DNA of 64,000 nt from Escherichia coli (lineage in GTDB: Bacteria; Pseudomonadota; Gammaproteobacteria; Enterobacterales; Enterobacteriaceae). Below are positions 899 to 29,097 of the stretch, one piece after another. The notes under the pieces were generated by a model, which saw only the letters and a program-made list of their open reading frames with translations, was not told the origin of the DNA and made no database searches. Every line of letters starts with the position of its first letter. Position 1 is the first letter of the stretch. Both the position numbers and the translations under genes were made by a program. The DNA lies in NCBI RefSeq assembly GCF_022846255.1, contig NZ_AP025682.1. One strand, given 5' to 3'.

Positions 899-2248
899 AT
901 GCCACTAATTATCGTTGTGGCAGGGATTGCTTTACTCCTGCTTTTAACCATAAAAATTAAGCTTAATACGTTTGTTTCGTTAATTATTGTCTCGATTGCT
1001 GTCGCCATCGCCAGTGGTATGGATTTGAGTAAAGTCGTCACCTCAGTCGAATCCGGACTTGGCGGTACGCTGGGCCATATTGGTTTGATATTTGGCTTCG
1101 GTGTTATGCTCGGTCGCTTGCTGGCCGATGCGGGGGGGGCGCAGCGAATAGCGCTGACCATGCTGAATTATTTCGGGAAAAATAAACTTGACTGGGCAGT
1201 GGTCTGTTCGGCGTTTATTGTCGGTATCGCACTTTTTTTCGAAGTCGGTTTAATTCTTCTGGTACCTATTTTATTCGCTATTGCCCGTGAAGCAAAAATA
1301 TCACCGATGTTTATGTGTGTGCCGATGCTTTCCGGTTTGCTGGTCGCACACGGTTTTTTGCCGCCGCACCCCGGCCCGACAGTAATCGCCAGAGAATATG
1401 GTGCTGATGTAGGATTGGTACTGATATACGGTATCATTGTCGGCATTCCAACCTTTATTCTTTGCGGCCCGGTATTGAATAAATTCTGCCAGCGCATTAT
1501 TCCGGAAGCCTTTAAAAAAGAGGGGAATATAGCCTCTCTCGGCGCGACCCGCCGGTTCAGCGAAAGCGAAATGCCTGGCTTTGGGATCAGTTTTCTCACG
1601 GCAATGCTGCCGGTGATCCTGATGGCGGTTGTCACCATCATCCAGATGACTCATGCCAAAAGTGCCGCGGATTCAGGCTTATTCTACAACGTGCTACTGT
1701 TCTTAGGTAATTCGACGATCGCCATGCTGATTTCACTGCTGTTCGCGATCTATACCATGGGCCTGGGGCGCGGGAAAACAATCCCTGACCTGATGGATTC
1801 TTGCGGAAAAGCTATCGCGGGTATTGCCGGTCTGCTGCTGATTATCGGTGGTGGTGGTGCATTCAAGCAAGTTCTCATCGACTCTGGCGTTGGTCAGTAT
1901 ATTTCCACCCTGGTTTCGGGTATGGATATTAACCCGATCCTGATGGCCTGGGGCGTGGCCGCATTCCTGCGTATTTGTCTGGGTTCAGCCACCGTCGCGG
2001 CGATCTCTACCGCCGGTCTGGTCATCCCATTGTTGGCAGTACATCCCAATACCAACCTGGCCTTGATTACGCTGGCTACCGGTGCCGGATCCTGTATTTG
2101 TTCTCACGTTAACGATGCCAGTTTCTGGATGATTAAAGACTTTTTTGGCCTGACCACCAAAGAAACGCTGTTATCCTGGACGCTGATGTCCACACTCTTA
2201 TCCATCAGTGGGCTGATTTTTATTCTGCTCACCAGCTTAGTTTTATAA
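899..2248 (+). CDS. GntP-family (gluconate/sugar-acid:H+) permease
   Basis: 449-aa polytopic membrane protein with GntP-family sequence character; RBS-like GAGGA upstream of ATG. Confidence 0.85.
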
Positions 2249-22036: not shown

Positions 22037-22609
22037 AGAGAATGGGTATTGTATTCAATTAGTTTAGGAGCTTAAGCTATCGGGGGTAATGCTGATTTAT
22101 TGGCAGTTGTGTACGTATTAGCGCTGCTTTTGCCGTAATACCCAGTAGTTCTTTCCAGCATAACTACAACTGAATGATACCAAAAATACATCTCAAGCTT
22201 TTTATCTTAGTCTTTCTATGATGACAATATTGAAAACTTCAGGATAATTAAAAGGTTAGTATTAATGAAAGTCCTTACATTTAAGCATCTTCTCTCTAAA
22301 CATATTTTCCTTAGAATCGGGGGCCTCAGTATTTAAAATCTTCCAGAGGTGTAATATTCAGCTTTGCTGTGACAACATCGAGAATGGTAAAAATTGATAA
22401 TATATCCTCTGAATATCAGGATGACTACGTTATAATGTATATGAGTTGGATTTGATTAGTTTCAAGGAAAGTGAAATGTGTGAAATAAGTACCAGACCAG
22501 TAGAACAGTAATTAAATACCGGAAAGCAAAGGGGGGAGGGGCGTGCTGACTGCATCTAAAATGAGACTATTACGCCCAGACATAGAGGGAAATAGCCAGT
22601 AGAGTACTT

Positions 22610-23386
22610 TTATTTGTTGGGGGGGGCCTGCTGATCCGTTTCACCAGTTGAGTTTGCAGCTGGAAGTTCTTTTGTCTTTGCTGTATCAATTGATTTGATT
22701 TGTTCGATGGCAGTTATATTACCTGACATTGCTTCATTGAGCACTTCTACTGCCCTACGGGCATCACGATCCTTGATCGACATGTAGACCTTGATATGAG
22801 CTTCCACACTCTCTAGGGTGATACCTAGCGCACGGTTAAGCTCTTCAAGATAGTAGTAATAGATGTCTTTAATCGAGTTCATCACGTTATAGAACACGCT
22901 GTTGTGTGATGCTCTGACTATTGCCAGATGGAACTCGTAATCCGCTTCCGAATACTTTTTGTAGTCCCCCTTATTGATCAACATATTATTCAGAGCTTCT
23001 TCGAGCTGGCGAATGTCGTCGTCGGTGGCGTGAGTGACAGCGAGTTCCACGCATTTGAACTCCACGGTCTGACGGAAAATCATCATATCGTGAAACTCTT
23101 CGCGGCTAAGGTGCATGATAGGACGTGGATCGTTACTCAACATTTGCGGGGTGAAGTTTGTGCTCACGTAGCTGCCACAGCCCTGACGTGTCACAACAAT
23201 CCCCAAGGTGCGAAAGCGCTGAACCGCACTACGTACACTGACCCGGCTTACATTAAATGAGTTGGCCAGCTCTAATTCTGAGGGCAAACGGCTACCTGGT
23301 GGCCAGCTGCCGTCCAGCAGTTTTCCACTTATTTGATCATAAACTTCATTTACAACATTCTGTTTCTGAATGGATTTTATGCTCAA
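22610..23386 (-). CDS. GntR-family regulator (FadR subfamily, FCD effector domain)
   Basis: 258 aa; N-terminal GntR winged HTH (LPSELELANSFNVSRVSVRSAVQRFRTLGIVVTRQGCGSYV); C-terminal codons include an 8-nt homopolymer. Confidence 0.85.
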   Translation of the reverse strand: MSIKSIQKQNVVNEVYDQISGKLLDGSWPPGSRLPSELELANSFNVSRVSVRSAVQRFRTLGIVVTRQGCGSYVSTNFTPQMLSNDPRPIMHLSREEFHDMMIFRQTVEFKCVELAVTHATDDDIRQLEEALNNMLINKGDYKKYSEADYEFHLAIVRASHNSVFYNVMNSIKDIYYYYLEELNRALGITLESVEAHIKVYMSIKDRDARRAVEVLNEAMSGNITAIEQIKSIDTAKTKELPAANSTGETDQQAPPNK

Positions 23387-23464
23387 GATGGGGTCCGAAG
23401 TCAGTTTAGATAAGCCAATAATATATCATCTTTAAAATCAAAGCGCCCAAGTGGGCGCCCTATA

Positions 23465-24751
23465 TTAACAAGTTTGTGCTTTTGCTTCAGTGGATTTTTT
23501 AGTGCTAAACGAGGTGAGTGAGGTGAGCAACACTGCCACAACCAGCGAAGCACTCATAAAGACATAAGAAGCACCTGGATCGCCCGTTAATCCATTCAGA
23601 TAACCGACAATCCATGAACCAACGAATGAGCCCAGAGCACCGAAACTTACGATAAATGCCATCGCACCAGCCATCACATTACGAGGGATAATTTCTGGTA
23701 TTGCGGCAAAGAATGGTCCGTAAGGTGTATACATCGCGCCACCTGCAACCATCAACAGGATATACGAGAGCCAAAAGTTGGATTCTCCAACGGTAAACGA
23801 ACCAATAAAGCAGAACGCACCCAATCCTAAAAACAGAAGAACAATGATTTTACGGTTCATAAATTTATCTGAATACCAAGACGCGCCGAGCATAAGTGAT
23901 ACAGCTAATAAGTAGGGTGCTGCTGATAGCCAACCTATTGCTACGATGCTTAATTCAGATGCTGATTTCAAAATAGACGGTAGCCACATAATAAATCCAT
24001 ACATCCCAATATTCCAGAAGAAGTGGATAAATGAGAGTGATAAGACTTTGCCTGAACGAAATGCTTCGCTGTAGTTTTTAATTTCTTTAATATTGGTTTG
24101 CTCTGCCGCAAGTGCCGCTTCTATATCTTTTTTTTCGTGCTCTGTTAACCAGGTTGCATCTGTGGGGCGATCAACAAAGACAAACCACCAGATAACTGCC
24201 CAAATGATGGCAGGGATGCCTTCGATAATAAACATACCACGCCAGCCAAAGGAGTCCACGAGATAGCCTGATAGCACTGACATCCAGAGTACTGTTATGG
24301 GGTTGCCAAGAAAAAGGAAGGTGTTAGCTTTCGACCTTTCTTTCTTAGTGAACCAATGGCTCAGGAAAACAAGCATGGCAGGCATCACAACGCTTTCAGC
24401 CACGCCGAGTAAGAAGCGAATGACCGCTAGGACCTTAACGTCGTGGACCATGCCGGTCGCTGTCGCTAGTATTCCCCACAGAATTAAGCTCCAAAAAATA
24501 AGCTTCTTGGCACTTCTTTTTTCAGCATAAATCCCTCCAGGTACCTGAAAGAAAAAATATCCAAGGAAGAACAGTGCACCCAGTAGTGAGGAAATCCCTG
24601 GTGTAATATTGAGATCCTCAGCCAGACCGGAGGCAGCACCAAAGCCATAATTAGCGCGATCAAGATAGGCAAGGCTATACGTAATAAATGCCAGCGGGAT
24701 CAACTTACGCCAGCGAATCGGCGCTAATTTTTTATGTATATTCTGAACCAT
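23465..24751 (-). CDS. MFS transporter, anion:cation symporter (ACS) family (hexuronate/aldonate-type, ExuT/DgoT-like)
   Basis: 428 aa; N-terminal region LAFITYSLAYLDRANYGFGAASGLAEDLNITPGISSLLGALFFLGYFFFQVPGG typical of ACS-family sugar-acid permeases. Confidence 0.8.
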   Translation of the reverse strand: MVQNIHKKLAPIRWRKLIPLAFITYSLAYLDRANYGFGAASGLAEDLNITPGISSLLGALFFLGYFFFQVPGGIYAEKRSAKKLIFWSLILWGILATATGMVHDVKVLAVIRFLLGVAESVVMPAMLVFLSHWFTKKERSKANTFLFLGNPITVLWMSVLSGYLVDSFGWRGMFIIEGIPAIIWAVIWWFVFVDRPTDATWLTEHEKKDIEAALAAEQTNIKEIKNYSEAFRSGKVLSLSFIHFFWNIGMYGFIMWLPSILKSASELSIVAIGWLSAAPYLLAVSLMLGASWYSDKFMNRKIIVLLFLGLGAFCFIGSFTVGESNFWLSYILLMVAGGAMYTPYGPFFAAIPEIIPRNVMAGAMAFIVSFGALGSFVGSWIVGYLNGLTGDPGASYVFMSASLVVAVLLTSLTSFSTKKSTEAKAQTC

Positions 24752-24806
24752 GATGTTTTCCCATTTAATTACTGCAGTTCGTATAACGAATGTCAGTAGA
24801 TGTTAA

Positions 24807-25574
24807 TTACAGCACCGCGAGCCACCCACCATCAACGTAAATAATTTGTCCATTGATATAATCTGATGCTTTGGATGATAAGAAGATGGCAGTTCCGATG
24901 AGTTCCTCTGGATGTCCCCAACGTTGGGACGGGTTGCTGTTTTTCACCCAAGAATCGAAGTGTTTGTCTTCGATAAGCGCAGTGTTCATGTCGGTGAGAA
25001 TGTAGCCCGGTCCAATGGCATTGGTCTGAATATTAAACTGTGCCCATTCTGCGGCCATTGAACAGGTAAGCATTTTGATGCCGCCTTTTGCTGCCGTGTA
25101 TGGAGCAACTGTTGGACGTGCGGCCTGGCTAGTGAGTGAACCGATATTAATGATTTTGCCACCGCGTTTATGGTCAATCATCCGCTTTGCCGCCGCGCGG
25201 GACACGAGAAATGCACTAGTTAAGTTCGTGTCGATCACCTTCTGCCAGTTTTCCAACTCCAGTTCAACCATCGGTTTGCGGTACTGAATACCAGCGTTAT
25301 TAATCAGGATATCAATACTGATCCCTTGCGCATCAAGTTGACTAAAAGCTGATTCAATCGCTTGTTCATTGGTGACGTCAAAAGCCACACCGTGCGCATC
25401 GTAACCCTTGCTTGTCAGAGACTTTACTGCTTCTGCCAGCAACGTGTCGCGAATATCATTCAGGATGACTCGAGCACCCGCAACGGCAAGTCCCTCTGCA
25501 TAGGCAAGGCCCAGTCCACGTGCTGCACCTGTTACCAACGCCGTTTTCCCCGTTAAATCAAATAAAGCGTTCAT
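24807..25574 (-). CDS. SDR-family oxidoreductase, gluconate 5-dehydrogenase (IdnO/Gno)-like
   Basis: 255 aa; TGAARGLG cofactor motif, catalytic YTAAK, high similarity in pattern to IdnO/KduD-type dehydrogenases. Confidence 0.85.
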   Translation of the reverse strand: MNALFDLTGKTALVTGAARGLGLAYAEGLAVAGARVILNDIRDTLLAEAVKSLTSKGYDAHGVAFDVTNEQAIESAFSQLDAQGISIDILINNAGIQYRKPMVELELENWQKVIDTNLTSAFLVSRAAAKRMIDHKRGGKIINIGSLTSQAARPTVAPYTAAKGGIKMLTCSMAAEWAQFNIQTNAIGPGYILTDMNTALIEDKHFDSWVKNSNPSQRWGHPEELIGTAIFLSSKASDYINGQIIYVDGGWLAVL

Positions 25575-25909
25575 ATTGTTTCCTCATGCATTTGTGTTGT
25601 ATGACAACTACCTTTTAAAAGGTAGGGGGTTCGCTACGACAAAAGCAACAATGTGCCCATGAATTTGCAACATGGATCACAAATAGCTTTGTGCAATGAT
25701 TGATGGTCTTATTTAATTTATTGAATTATATGGTGTAATATTTATATTGATGAGCATGGTTTGATCACTGTCACAGAATGGCGTTCGCAACGATCACTTG
25801 CAAATGAAGCGTGATATAACAATGTTGGTTGTAGGACAACCTACATGTTGTGTTGTTCATAACGATATGGATATGGCATACGAGAAAATTACTGAGCTGA
25901 GGTGTAAAA

Positions 25910-27163
25910 GTGAGTAGCCTGAAAATAACTAACGTGAAGACGATTCTGACGGCACCAGGCGGCATTGATTTAGCGGTCGTGAAAGTCGAGACCAACGAGC
26001 CAGGACTATACGGGTTGGGATGTGCAACATTTACTCAGCGTATCTTTGCAGTAAAAAGCGCAATCGATGAATACATGGCACCTTTCCTGATTGGGAAAGA
26101 TCCTACTCGTATTGAAGATATCTGGCAGTCGGGTGCGGTGAGTGGCTACTGGCGTAGTGGTCCCATTATGAACAATGCGTTGTCTGGTGTGGACATGGCA
26201 CTGTGGGATATCAAAGGTAAACTGGCGGGGATGCCGGTTTATGACTTGCTGGGTGGCAAATGCCGTGATGGTATCCCACTATACTGTCATACCGACGGTA
26301 GCGATGAAGTTGAAGTAGAAGATAACATCCGTGCCAGAATGGAAGAGGGTTACCAGTATGTTCGCTGCCAGATGGGCATGTACGGCGGCGCGGGGACTGA
26401 TGACCTTAAACTGATCGCTACGCAGTTGGCGCGAGCGAAGAACATTCAGCCGAAGCGTTCGCCCCGCAGCAAAACGCCCGGTATCTACTTTGATCCGGAT
26501 GCCTACGCCAAAAGCGTTCCACGTTTGTTTGATCACCTGCGTAACAAGCTGGGATTTGGCATTGAATTTATTCATGATGTGCACGAGCGTGTCACCCCTG
26601 TGACCGCTGTTAACCTGGCTAAAACGCTCGAACAATATCAGCTGTTTTATCTTGAAGATCCGGTGGCACCTGAAAACATCGACTGGTTGAAAATGCTGCG
26701 TCAGCAGTCTTCCACTCCGATATCCATGGGTGAACTGTTTGTAAATGTGAATGAGTGGAAACCGCTCATCGACAATAAACTCATCGACTACATTCGCTGC
26801 CACGTGAGTACTATTGGTGGCATTACACCGGCGAAAAAACTTGCGGTCTACAGCGAGTTGAACGGTGTGCGAACCGCATGGCATGGGCCGGGCGATATTT
26901 CTCCGGTCGGGGTCTGCGCTAATATGCATCTGGACTTGAGTTCACCGAACTTTGGTATTCAGGAATACACGCCAATGAACGACGCGCTGCGTGATGTATT
27001 TCCGGGCTGCCCTGAGATTGACCGCGGTTATGCCTATCTGAACGAGAAGCCGGGTCTGGGGATTGAGATTGATGAAGCTAAAGCGGCAAAATACCCGTGT
27101 GAGGGTGGGATACCGTCGTGGACGATGGCGCGTACACCTGACGGTACTGCCTCAAGACCATAA
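25910..27163 (+). CDS. Enolase-superfamily sugar-acid dehydratase, D-mannonate dehydratase (ManD)/RspA-like
   Basis: 417 aa from GTG start with AGGTG RBS; mandelate racemase/muconate-lactonizing-enzyme fold character (MALWDIKGKLAGMPVYDLLGG). Confidence 0.8.
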   Translation: MSSLKITNVKTILTAPGGIDLAVVKVETNEPGLYGLGCATFTQRIFAVKSAIDEYMAPFLIGKDPTRIEDIWQSGAVSGYWRSGPIMNNALSGVDMALWDIKGKLAGMPVYDLLGGKCRDGIPLYCHTDGSDEVEVEDNIRARMEEGYQYVRCQMGMYGGAGTDDLKLIATQLARAKNIQPKRSPRSKTPGIYFDPDAYAKSVPRLFDHLRNKLGFGIEFIHDVHERVTPVTAVNLAKTLEQYQLFYLEDPVAPENIDWLKMLRQQSSTPISMGELFVNVNEWKPLIDNKLIDYIRCHVSTIGGITPAKKLAVYSELNGVRTAWHGPGDISPVGVCANMHLDLSSPNFGIQEYTPMNDALRDVFPGCPEIDRGYAYLNEKPGLGIEIDEAKAAKYPCEGGIPSWTMARTPDGTASRP

Positions 27164-27561: not shown

Positions 27562-28824
27562 TTATTTTAATGGATTATTAATCTTTGCATATTCAAATGG
27601 ACTGATAAATCTTTCTCTATTTGCATCCAGAAAATCGGCCCACCATTGTAGCATCAGTCGACGTTCTTCCAGATGTTCTGCTTTATGAATGTAAGCAGCA
27701 CGTACACCATTACGCTCCTGATGGCTCATCTGACGTTCCACAGCATCGCGGGACCACAAACCTGATTCAATCAATGCACTGCACGCCATCGCCCGGAATC
27801 CATGGCCACAGACTTCCTGGGTTGTGTCATATCCCATAACCCTCAGGGCTTTATTTACGGTATTTTCGCTGATTGGTTTACGTGGGTCATGTGCCCCCGT
27901 AAAGATCAGACCATTTTCACCAGCCCATGTCTGAAGTTCTGTCAGTATGGCTACAGCCTGTTTGCTGAGTGGCACAAGATGTGGTGTTCGCATCTTGGAG
28001 CCTCGGTGTGAGAATTTTACGCCTGGCAGAGGTTCGCGTTCGGCTGGAATAGTCCACATGGCATTGTCAATATCAATTTCAGACCAGCGGGCATATCTGA
28101 GTTCACTGGAACGAATAAAAACCAGTAAATTCAGCATAACTGCCCGTCGGGTGACAGGCTGGCCTTTATAACCGCCAATACGCGACAGAAGTTCAGGCAG
28201 ACGTGAAAGATCCAGAGCTGGGCGATGCTGGCGTTTTACCGTAGTCAATGCACCAGCCATATCCAGAGCCGGGTTATATCTGATGATGCCAGACTGTACG
28301 GCATAACGCATTACAGCAGATATTCTTTGCTGCAGACGACTGGCGATTTCATAAATTTGTTTAGCTTCTGCAGCACGAACAGGGATAAGCAGGTCCGGGG
28401 TACTGAGTGTTGTGATATCCCGGTTGCCGATAAAGGGGAATACGTGTGTCTCGAGGCTTTTGAGTACTTTATCGCTGTGTGATTGTGCCCATTGTTTATT
28501 ACTGGCATGCCAGCGTCGTGCAATATGTTCAAAAGAGAGCTGTAAATCAGGGACTACTTTTTTAGCTCTTTTCTGTTCGCAAGGGTCAATCCCCTCCGAA
28601 ATCAGTTTTCGGGCCTCATCCCGTTTTGTACGAGCTTCGGAGAGAGAAACTTCTGGATACACACCAAGTGCCAGAGTCTTCTCCTTACCCAGAATACGAT
28701 AACGGAGACGCCAGTAACGGGAACCATTAGGATGAACCAGCAGGAACATGCCGGCCCCGTCAGTGAGTTTATAAGCCTTGTCAGTGGGCTTTGCAGCCCG
28801 GATTTTTGCGTCAGTCAGCGCCAT
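27562..28824 (-). CDS. int: Tyrosine recombinase, P4-type integrase (island integrase)
   Basis: 420 aa, MALTDAKIRAAKPTDKAYKLTDGAGMFLLVHPNGSRYWRLRYR... N-terminal arm-binding region typical of P4-like integrases; start lies 198 bp from the tRNA-Phe 3' end. Confidence 0.9.
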   Translation of the reverse strand: MALTDAKIRAAKPTDKAYKLTDGAGMFLLVHPNGSRYWRLRYRILGKEKTLALGVYPEVSLSEARTKRDEARKLISEGIDPCEQKRAKKVVPDLQLSFEHIARRWHASNKQWAQSHSDKVLKSLETHVFPFIGNRDITTLSTPDLLIPVRAAEAKQIYEIASRLQQRISAVMRYAVQSGIIRYNPALDMAGALTTVKRQHRPALDLSRLPELLSRIGGYKGQPVTRRAVMLNLLVFIRSSELRYARWSEIDIDNAMWTIPAEREPLPGVKFSHRGSKMRTPHLVPLSKQAVAILTELQTWAGENGLIFTGAHDPRKPISENTVNKALRVMGYDTTQEVCGHGFRAMACSALIESGLWSRDAVERQMSHQERNGVRAAYIHKAEHLEERRLMLQWWADFLDANRERFISPFEYAKINNPLK

Positions 28825-29021: not shown

Positions 29022-29097
29022 TGGTGCCCGGACTCGGAATCGAACCAAGGACACGGGGATTTTCAATCCCCTGCTCTACCGACTGAGCTATCCGGGC
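29022..29097 (-). tRNA. pheV: tRNA-Phe (GAA anticodon)
   Basis: Reverse complement reads GCCCGGATAGCTCAGTCGGTAGAGCAGGGGATTGAAAATCCCCGTGTCCTTGGTTCGATTCCGAGTCCGGGCACCA, the canonical E. coli tRNA-Phe. Confidence 0.95.

Follow-up and report, generated by a model that had tools for sequence, protein, structure and literature searches.

An eight-base G/C run in the last codons of a FadR-subfamily regulator gene of Escherichia coli is very probably an incidental homopolymer

Does an uninterrupted run of eight G:C pairs, placed two codons ahead of the stop codon of a transcriptional regulator, serve as a switch for that regulator? The question is raised by positions 22619-22626 of the 64-kb stretch of DNA analysed here (the window). 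A first-pass annotation had proposed that slipped-strand mispairing at this tract could phase-vary the C-terminal tail of the protein, and had added that the run may be incidental. The position of the run in the gene, the product expected from a one-base slip, the alleles found in related loci and the behavior of other runs in the window were used to decide between these readings.

The regulator and its island

The regulator gene belongs to an island at tRNA-Phe in a chromosome of the Escherichia coli type. The window aligns to E. coli chromosomes around speC-nupG-mltC, mostly at 95-99% identity, and the island boundary is given by the tRNA-Phe gene (29022-29097, minus strand) and by the integrase gene that adjoins it (27562..28824, minus strand). 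The regulator gene occupies 22610..23386 on the minus strand and encodes 258 amino acids, from a TTG start to a TAA stop at 22610-22612. Upstream of it and on the same strand are the ORFs of an MFS transporter of the D-galactonate-transporter family (23465..24751) and of a gluconate-5-dehydrogenase-like SDR (24807..25574), while the gene of a ManD/D-galactonate-dehydratase-family enzyme is transcribed divergently from the SDR, MFS and regulator genes; the best NCBIfam matches of the MFS, SDR and dehydratase genes are all under the curated cut-offs. The order of the MFS and SDR genes is kept in related loci, and these two genes are likely the regulon of the regulator. The regulator allele of the window, that of a rare accessory gene, is found in only one of 5426 complete E. 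coli genomes, which are thus ill suited for comparison, and relatives were taken from protein clusters and contigs instead. Diverged copies with 87% DNA identity reside on plasmids of E. coli, Klebsiella and Kosakonia. The cluster is a mosaic, putative sugar-acid gene cluster.

The exact protein (P0001) is found in the public protein collection as 'FadR/GntR family transcriptional regulator [Escherichia coli]', and the RefSeq annotation of the copy in E. coli CH4784, which is 99.7% identical, gives the same start and stop. In that strain the same cluster adjoins the genes of a partial integrase, a TPR protein, a phosphoethanolamine transferase and LeoA. Two arrangements of the operon contain P0001 (window 22610-27163; loci L012-L017): in the one seen in the window, the order SDR-MFS (428 aa)-regulator is accompanied by the divergent ManD-like dehydratase, and the second reads SDR-MFS (453 aa)-Zn-dependent dehydrogenase (idnD-like)-regulator.

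The first-pass annotation had placed the run in the gene of a GntR-family regulator, and this is borne out by Pfam. Residues 13-74 match GntR (PF00392; E 1.3e-15, 57.3 bits versus a cut-off of 27) and residues 101-219 match FCD (PF07729; E 1.8e-22, 80.5 bits versus a cut-off of 24.3), and the protein is assigned to the FadR subfamily because both domains match: it has the N-terminal GntR winged helix-turn-helix and the C-terminal all-helical FCD effector-binding domain, the AlphaFold2 model placing helices between residues 95 and 239. It shares this arrangement with NanR, LldR, PdhR, GlcC, UxuR and ExuR and, as with the sugar-acid and organic-acid regulators of the FadR type, its gene adjoins those of a sugar-acid-type transporter, a dehydrogenase and a dehydratase. 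Unlike the named FadR-type regulators, it is no equivalog of any of them (NanR, LldR, PdhR and others), given that its best NCBIfam matches reach 96-98 bits versus curated cut-offs of 260-330, and it has an additional tail of 19 amino acids.

The run, the tail that holds it and the consequence of a slip

Direct reading agrees with the description of the run as eight G on the plus strand and eight C on the coding strand, encoding a Pro-Pro near the C-terminus. The plus strand at 22619-22626 reads GGGGGGGG, with T at 22618 and C at 22627 as neighbours, and the gene strand reads GCC CCC CCC AAC AAA TAA, that is, Ala254-Pro255-Pro256-Asn257-Lys258-stop, with the C8 contained within GCC CCC CCC. 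The run terminates two codons ahead of the stop, and the regulator ORF is the sole long ORF that spans it.

The stretch of protein in which the run lies is a C-terminal extension of 19 residues (240-258, ELPAANSTGETDQQAPPNK; 22613..22669, minus strand), which becomes apparent from the comparison with homologues. The plasmid homologues, with 92% protein identity, have TAA or TAG at codon 240 where the window reads GAA, and their protein ends at residue 239; the DNA 3' of their stop is partly alignable with the tail of the window. Most of the 120 homologues listed are 231-246 amino acids long. Their conserved core extends to about AIEKIK (residue 231), beyond which there is a short hydrophilic tail that differs per lineage, and FadR-type relatives in the PDB align to at most about residue 224. 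In the AlphaFold2 model, built with 43 homologues, pLDDT is below 50 at residues 234-255 and there is no secondary structure beyond residue 239. From this model and the homologues, the extension is lineage-specific, probably disordered and well outside both domains.

The tail also differs from the body of the gene in its substitutions. When the window is compared with L008, 1 synonymous and 13 nonsynonymous differences fall in the last 28 codons, versus 24 and 3 in the body, and for L010 the corresponding values are 3 and 18 versus 25 and 5. This pattern may reflect either weak constraint at the protein level or a mosaic junction. In the loci L004-L018 the last 28 codons (22613-22696) are hypervariable by nonsynonymous substitution, and the 258-residue alleles end in APPNK, VPPNK, LPPNK, PPPNK, TSPNE or TNSNK. 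Taken with the plasmid stop at codon 240, this hypervariable tail could be due to relaxed constraint or to a recombination junction. We infer that the tail is functionally dispensable. On the other hand, the 258-residue alleles, heavily substituted as they are, all share their exact length and end in N-K/E-stop. The fact that no frameshifted alleles are seen while a nearby non-coding run varies hints at some purifying selection on the 258-residue frame, and the tail may not be wholly functionless.

The consequences of a one-base slip were simulated. Loss of one C gives a protein of 271 amino acids ending in APPTNKSTLLAISLYVWA, in which the last Asn-Lys is replaced by 15 residues, and gain of one C gives a protein of 291 amino acids ending in APPQQIKVLYWLFPSMSGRNSLILDAVSTPLPPLLSGI, in which the same two residues are replaced by 35. 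In neither product is a residue before position 257 lost, and all 254 upstream residues and both domains are intact. The run is at the extreme 3' end of the gene and, therefore, a slip cannot switch the regulator off; at most it adds a tail. At contingency loci the repeat lies in the 5' coding region or in the promoter spacer, where a frameshift switches expression, and this is not the case for the run studied here. A tail altered by a frameshift would be neutral or slightly harmful and would not serve regulation.

Allele comparison and control runs

Three G/C runs of eight bases are found in the window, at 1132-1139, 12706-12713 and 22619-22626. For a 64-kb window with 48.6% G+C, an order-1 Markov model gives 0.8 runs of at least eight bases, and 57% of the windows simulated with it contain one or more. 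The Poisson probability of three or more such runs given 0.8 is approximately 0.05, and the three observed are not clearly more than chance, with an excess that is at most marginal. All three encode Gly-Gly or Pro-Pro dipeptides in GGG or CCC codons and lie inside intact ORFs. By length, the window has three G/C runs of eight bases, none of seven and four of six, which are small numbers; the absence of runs of seven beside three of eight is odd and probably due to chance.

The two other runs of eight are both placed in the middle of a gene. The G8 at 1132-1139 belongs to a yjhF-like GntP permease gene (899..2248, plus strand), where GCG GGG GGG GCG encodes Ala-Gly-Gly-Ala. This site reads GGT GGT in two genomes sampled from the 1596 with 95-99% identity, and GGG GGT in one other allele; identity of 99% or above with the window is found in 11 genomes, and the one that was read (H33) has the in-frame G8. 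The G8 arose, then, from GGT GGT via two synonymous T>G changes. The run at 12706-12713 is C8 on the plus strand and G8 on the gene strand of an MFS transporter gene (11834..13024, minus strand), where it encodes part of LGGLGGA, and nine complete E. coli genomes share the 100 nt around it with 100% identity. Thus, G/C runs of eight bases arise by point mutation at Gly-Gly and Pro-Pro codons and are stable in this species even in the middle of genes.

A further internal control is provided by an interrupted non-coding run 70 nt past the regulator stop (22531..22541), which reads CCCCTCCCCCC on the gene strand, the minus strand, and GGGGGGAGGGG on the plus strand. Among the related loci it is shorter by a deletion of one nucleotide in L005 (C4TC5), L013 carries a C>T change, and in L004 and L018 the sequence is remodelled. 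This variation in length means that homopolymer indels are detectable in these assemblies where the sequence is unconstrained. Two other features of the region were considered and set aside: a terminator-like hairpin with a T-run at 22644-22663 (plus strand), antisense to the 3' end of the regulator gene, is at chance level (1 found versus 1.1 expected from shuffles), and for a G-quadruplex formed from the G8 and GGGGGGAGGGG, 78 nt off, the G-tracts would be too few and too distant.

At the coding run the alleles behave differently from this control. The 90% cluster of the regulator has 12 members on 137 contigs, of which 11 are 258 amino acids long and one is an N-terminally partial form of 246 amino acids; approximately 107 of the 137 contigs have alleles ending in A/V/L/P-P-P-N-K. 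The exact products of slips to C5, C6, C7, C9, C10 and C11 are all absent from a collection of about 15 billion proteins, and no close homologue cluster listed has the lengths of slip products, 271/272 or 290-292 amino acids. The DNA was compared in 17 related loci that have the 258-residue tail, their assemblies being consensus sequences. The site of the run is ACA AAC TCG, with no run, in L010 and L011; ACA AGC CCC (C4) in L008 and L009; GCT CCC CCC (C6, a synonymous change) in L014; GTC CCC CCC (C7) in L005-L007; CTC CCC CCC (C7) in L018; GCC CCC CCC (C8) in the window, L001, L012, L013 and L015-L017; and CTG CCC CCC CCC (C9) in L004. Every one of the length differences is a base substitution at the run's 5' edge, the position of the stop is constant, and in none of these 17 consensus assemblies is there an indel at the coding run. 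At this site the sister alleles have ACAAGCCCC, ACAAACTCG or GCTCCCCCC, so that the tract is broken or missing in them and is not kept across alleles as it is at a contingency locus. A scan of JGI metagenome contigs for the two flanking sequences at varying distance, GGTGAAACGGATCAGC N{8,14} AACAAATAAAAGTA, matched nothing at all and thus carries no information on tract length.

These comparisons bear directly on the proposal of the first-pass annotation, which would have been contradicted by a tract of invariant length. The length is not invariant, given that the run is absent or ranges from 4 to 9 bases, but it changes by substitutions only, with the frame and the stop kept. The proposed phase variation of the tail, for its part, is not supported: the related assemblies and the protein collection have no indel variant, the run is not maintained and a frameshift at this place cannot inactivate the protein.

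Weighing the readings of the run

Slipped-strand mispairing at the C8, by which gain or loss of one C would alter the tail and reversibly change the activity or the stability of the regulator, is a very unlikely explanation for the run. It is true that eight uninterrupted G:C pairs are long enough to slip and are within the hypermutable range, runs of this kind being indel hot spots in mismatch-repair-defective E. coli (PMC8510543). Each frameshift product also gains in length and hydrophobicity (PTNKSTLLAISLYVWA, or PQQIKVLYWLFPSMSG and further residues), which might destabilise the protein. The contingency loci of Neisseria, Haemophilus, Campylobacter and Helicobacter likewise have coding mononucleotide G:C runs that are prone to slippage. 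Unlike these, the regulator run is found in the last codons and not in the 5' part of the gene, and no off state is possible; it has no indel polymorphism among its relatives (137 contigs, 17 DNA loci, and none of the six predicted slip products in the protein collection), and it has not been kept from allele to allele. The host differs as well, since its runs of eight show a stability of the type expected for intact mismatch repair, with the other two standing mid-gene in intact ORFs. To our knowledge, no classical homopolymer contingency loci are known in E. coli-type genomes, which also counts against this reading. A frameshift at the extreme 3' end gives no null, and phase-variable repeats are biased to the N-termini of proteins (PMC3315296). 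If the phase-variation reading were true, the regulator would be an unusual homopolymer-switched metabolic regulator in the Enterobacteriaceae.

A role at the level of the RNA or the ribosome is highly improbable. In this case a CCC-C +1 frameshift or transcriptional slippage would give a minor extended isoform, or the Ala-Pro-Pro-Asn sequence would cause EF-P-dependent stalling. A Pro-Pro flanked by Ala or Asn is an EF-P-dependent stall site, which counts in favour of stalling, and a +1 shift at Pro255 would leave the protein with the 16 residues that also end the product of a C7 allele. The slippery motif CCC-C is present at Pro255, and CC[C/U]-[C/U] is shift-prone, +1 errors in E. coli reaching about 1% when it stands at the second codon position; nonetheless, this high frequency is reported for the second codon specifically and not for the end of an ORF (PMC4519876). 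No stimulatory structure accompanies the motif, given that, with z = +1.44, the fold of the 181 nt at 22480-22660 (minus strand) is weaker than that of its shuffles, and Rfam gives no match at E <= 1. Sister alleles that end in TSPNE or TNSNK lack the motif, and the alternative-frame tails vary in sequence or length among alleles (16, 19 or 41 amino acids in one frame and 9 to 63 in the other) and have no sign of coding constraint. A programmed frameshift event at the run is, thus, unlikely. A tail switch of low frequency, in which a slip of the DNA at the C8, or a +1 slip of the ribosome at CCC-C, occasionally appends the hydrophobic tail of 15 or 35 residues and gives rise to a subpopulation derepressed for the sugar-acid genes, is highly improbable too. 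If true, it would mean an altered stability or oligomerisation of the regulator, and a C-terminal phase variation of an E. coli transcription factor that is not of the on/off type.

Several sequencing platforms are prone to errors in homopolymers, and the length of the run could be an artefact of sequencing or assembly. The probability of this is next to negligible: the in-frame C8 is found in at least six independent NCBI/ENA/Logan records (L001, L012, L013, L015, L016 and L017), and it gives an intact ORF whose protein is identical to the one on 54 contigs.

The G8/C8 run is, very probably, an incidental homopolymer that has no switch function, and the caveat in the first-pass annotation is the reading that the evidence favours. 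The run would exist as the terminal Ala-Pro-Pro happens to be spelled GCC CCC CCC. The sequence of the tail would drift, with point substitutions repeatedly extending or breaking the run, as the series ACA AGC CCC, GCT CCC CCC, GTC/CTC CCC CCC, GCC CCC CCC and CCC CCC CCC suggests. As a mutational property, the slippage-prone character that had been ascribed to a tract of this length stands. In E. coli the rates of indels climb exponentially with the length of the run, and the eight G.C pairs of the tRNA genes leuP, leuQ, leuV and leuT gathered 23-29 indels each in mismatch-repair-defective mutation-accumulation lines (PMC8510543). The regulator run has the same length and base pair in the same species as these hot spots of 1-bp indels in the absence of mismatch repair; they differ in that the leu runs are structurally required, as part of the T-psi-C stem, and conserved, while the regulator run is unconserved and has no apparent role. 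It is, then, a latent slippage hot spot, at which slips would be rare in mismatch-repair-proficient E. coli and would exchange only the final Asn-Lys for 15 (C7) or 35 (C9) residues, sparing the DNA- and effector-binding domains. Such a hot spot would be tolerated because it sits at an unconstrained protein terminus. Minority length variants are expected in culture at some low rate, as at any run of eight nucleotides, and here they would have little consequence. Prokaryotic proteins carry an excess of simple repeats at both of their ends and tolerate them there, for biophysical reasons (Lin & Kussell 2012; PMC3315296). At a terminus free of structural constraint a substitution, or even a frameshift, carries little cost, and the regulator run is an ordinary instance of this pattern, with no difference of substance.

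The outcome is mainly a clean negative, which means that a conspicuous G/C run of eight nucleotides is not necessarily a contingency locus in a genome of the E. coli type, and that the position in the gene, the comparison of alleles and a nearby non-coding control can together decide the question without read data.
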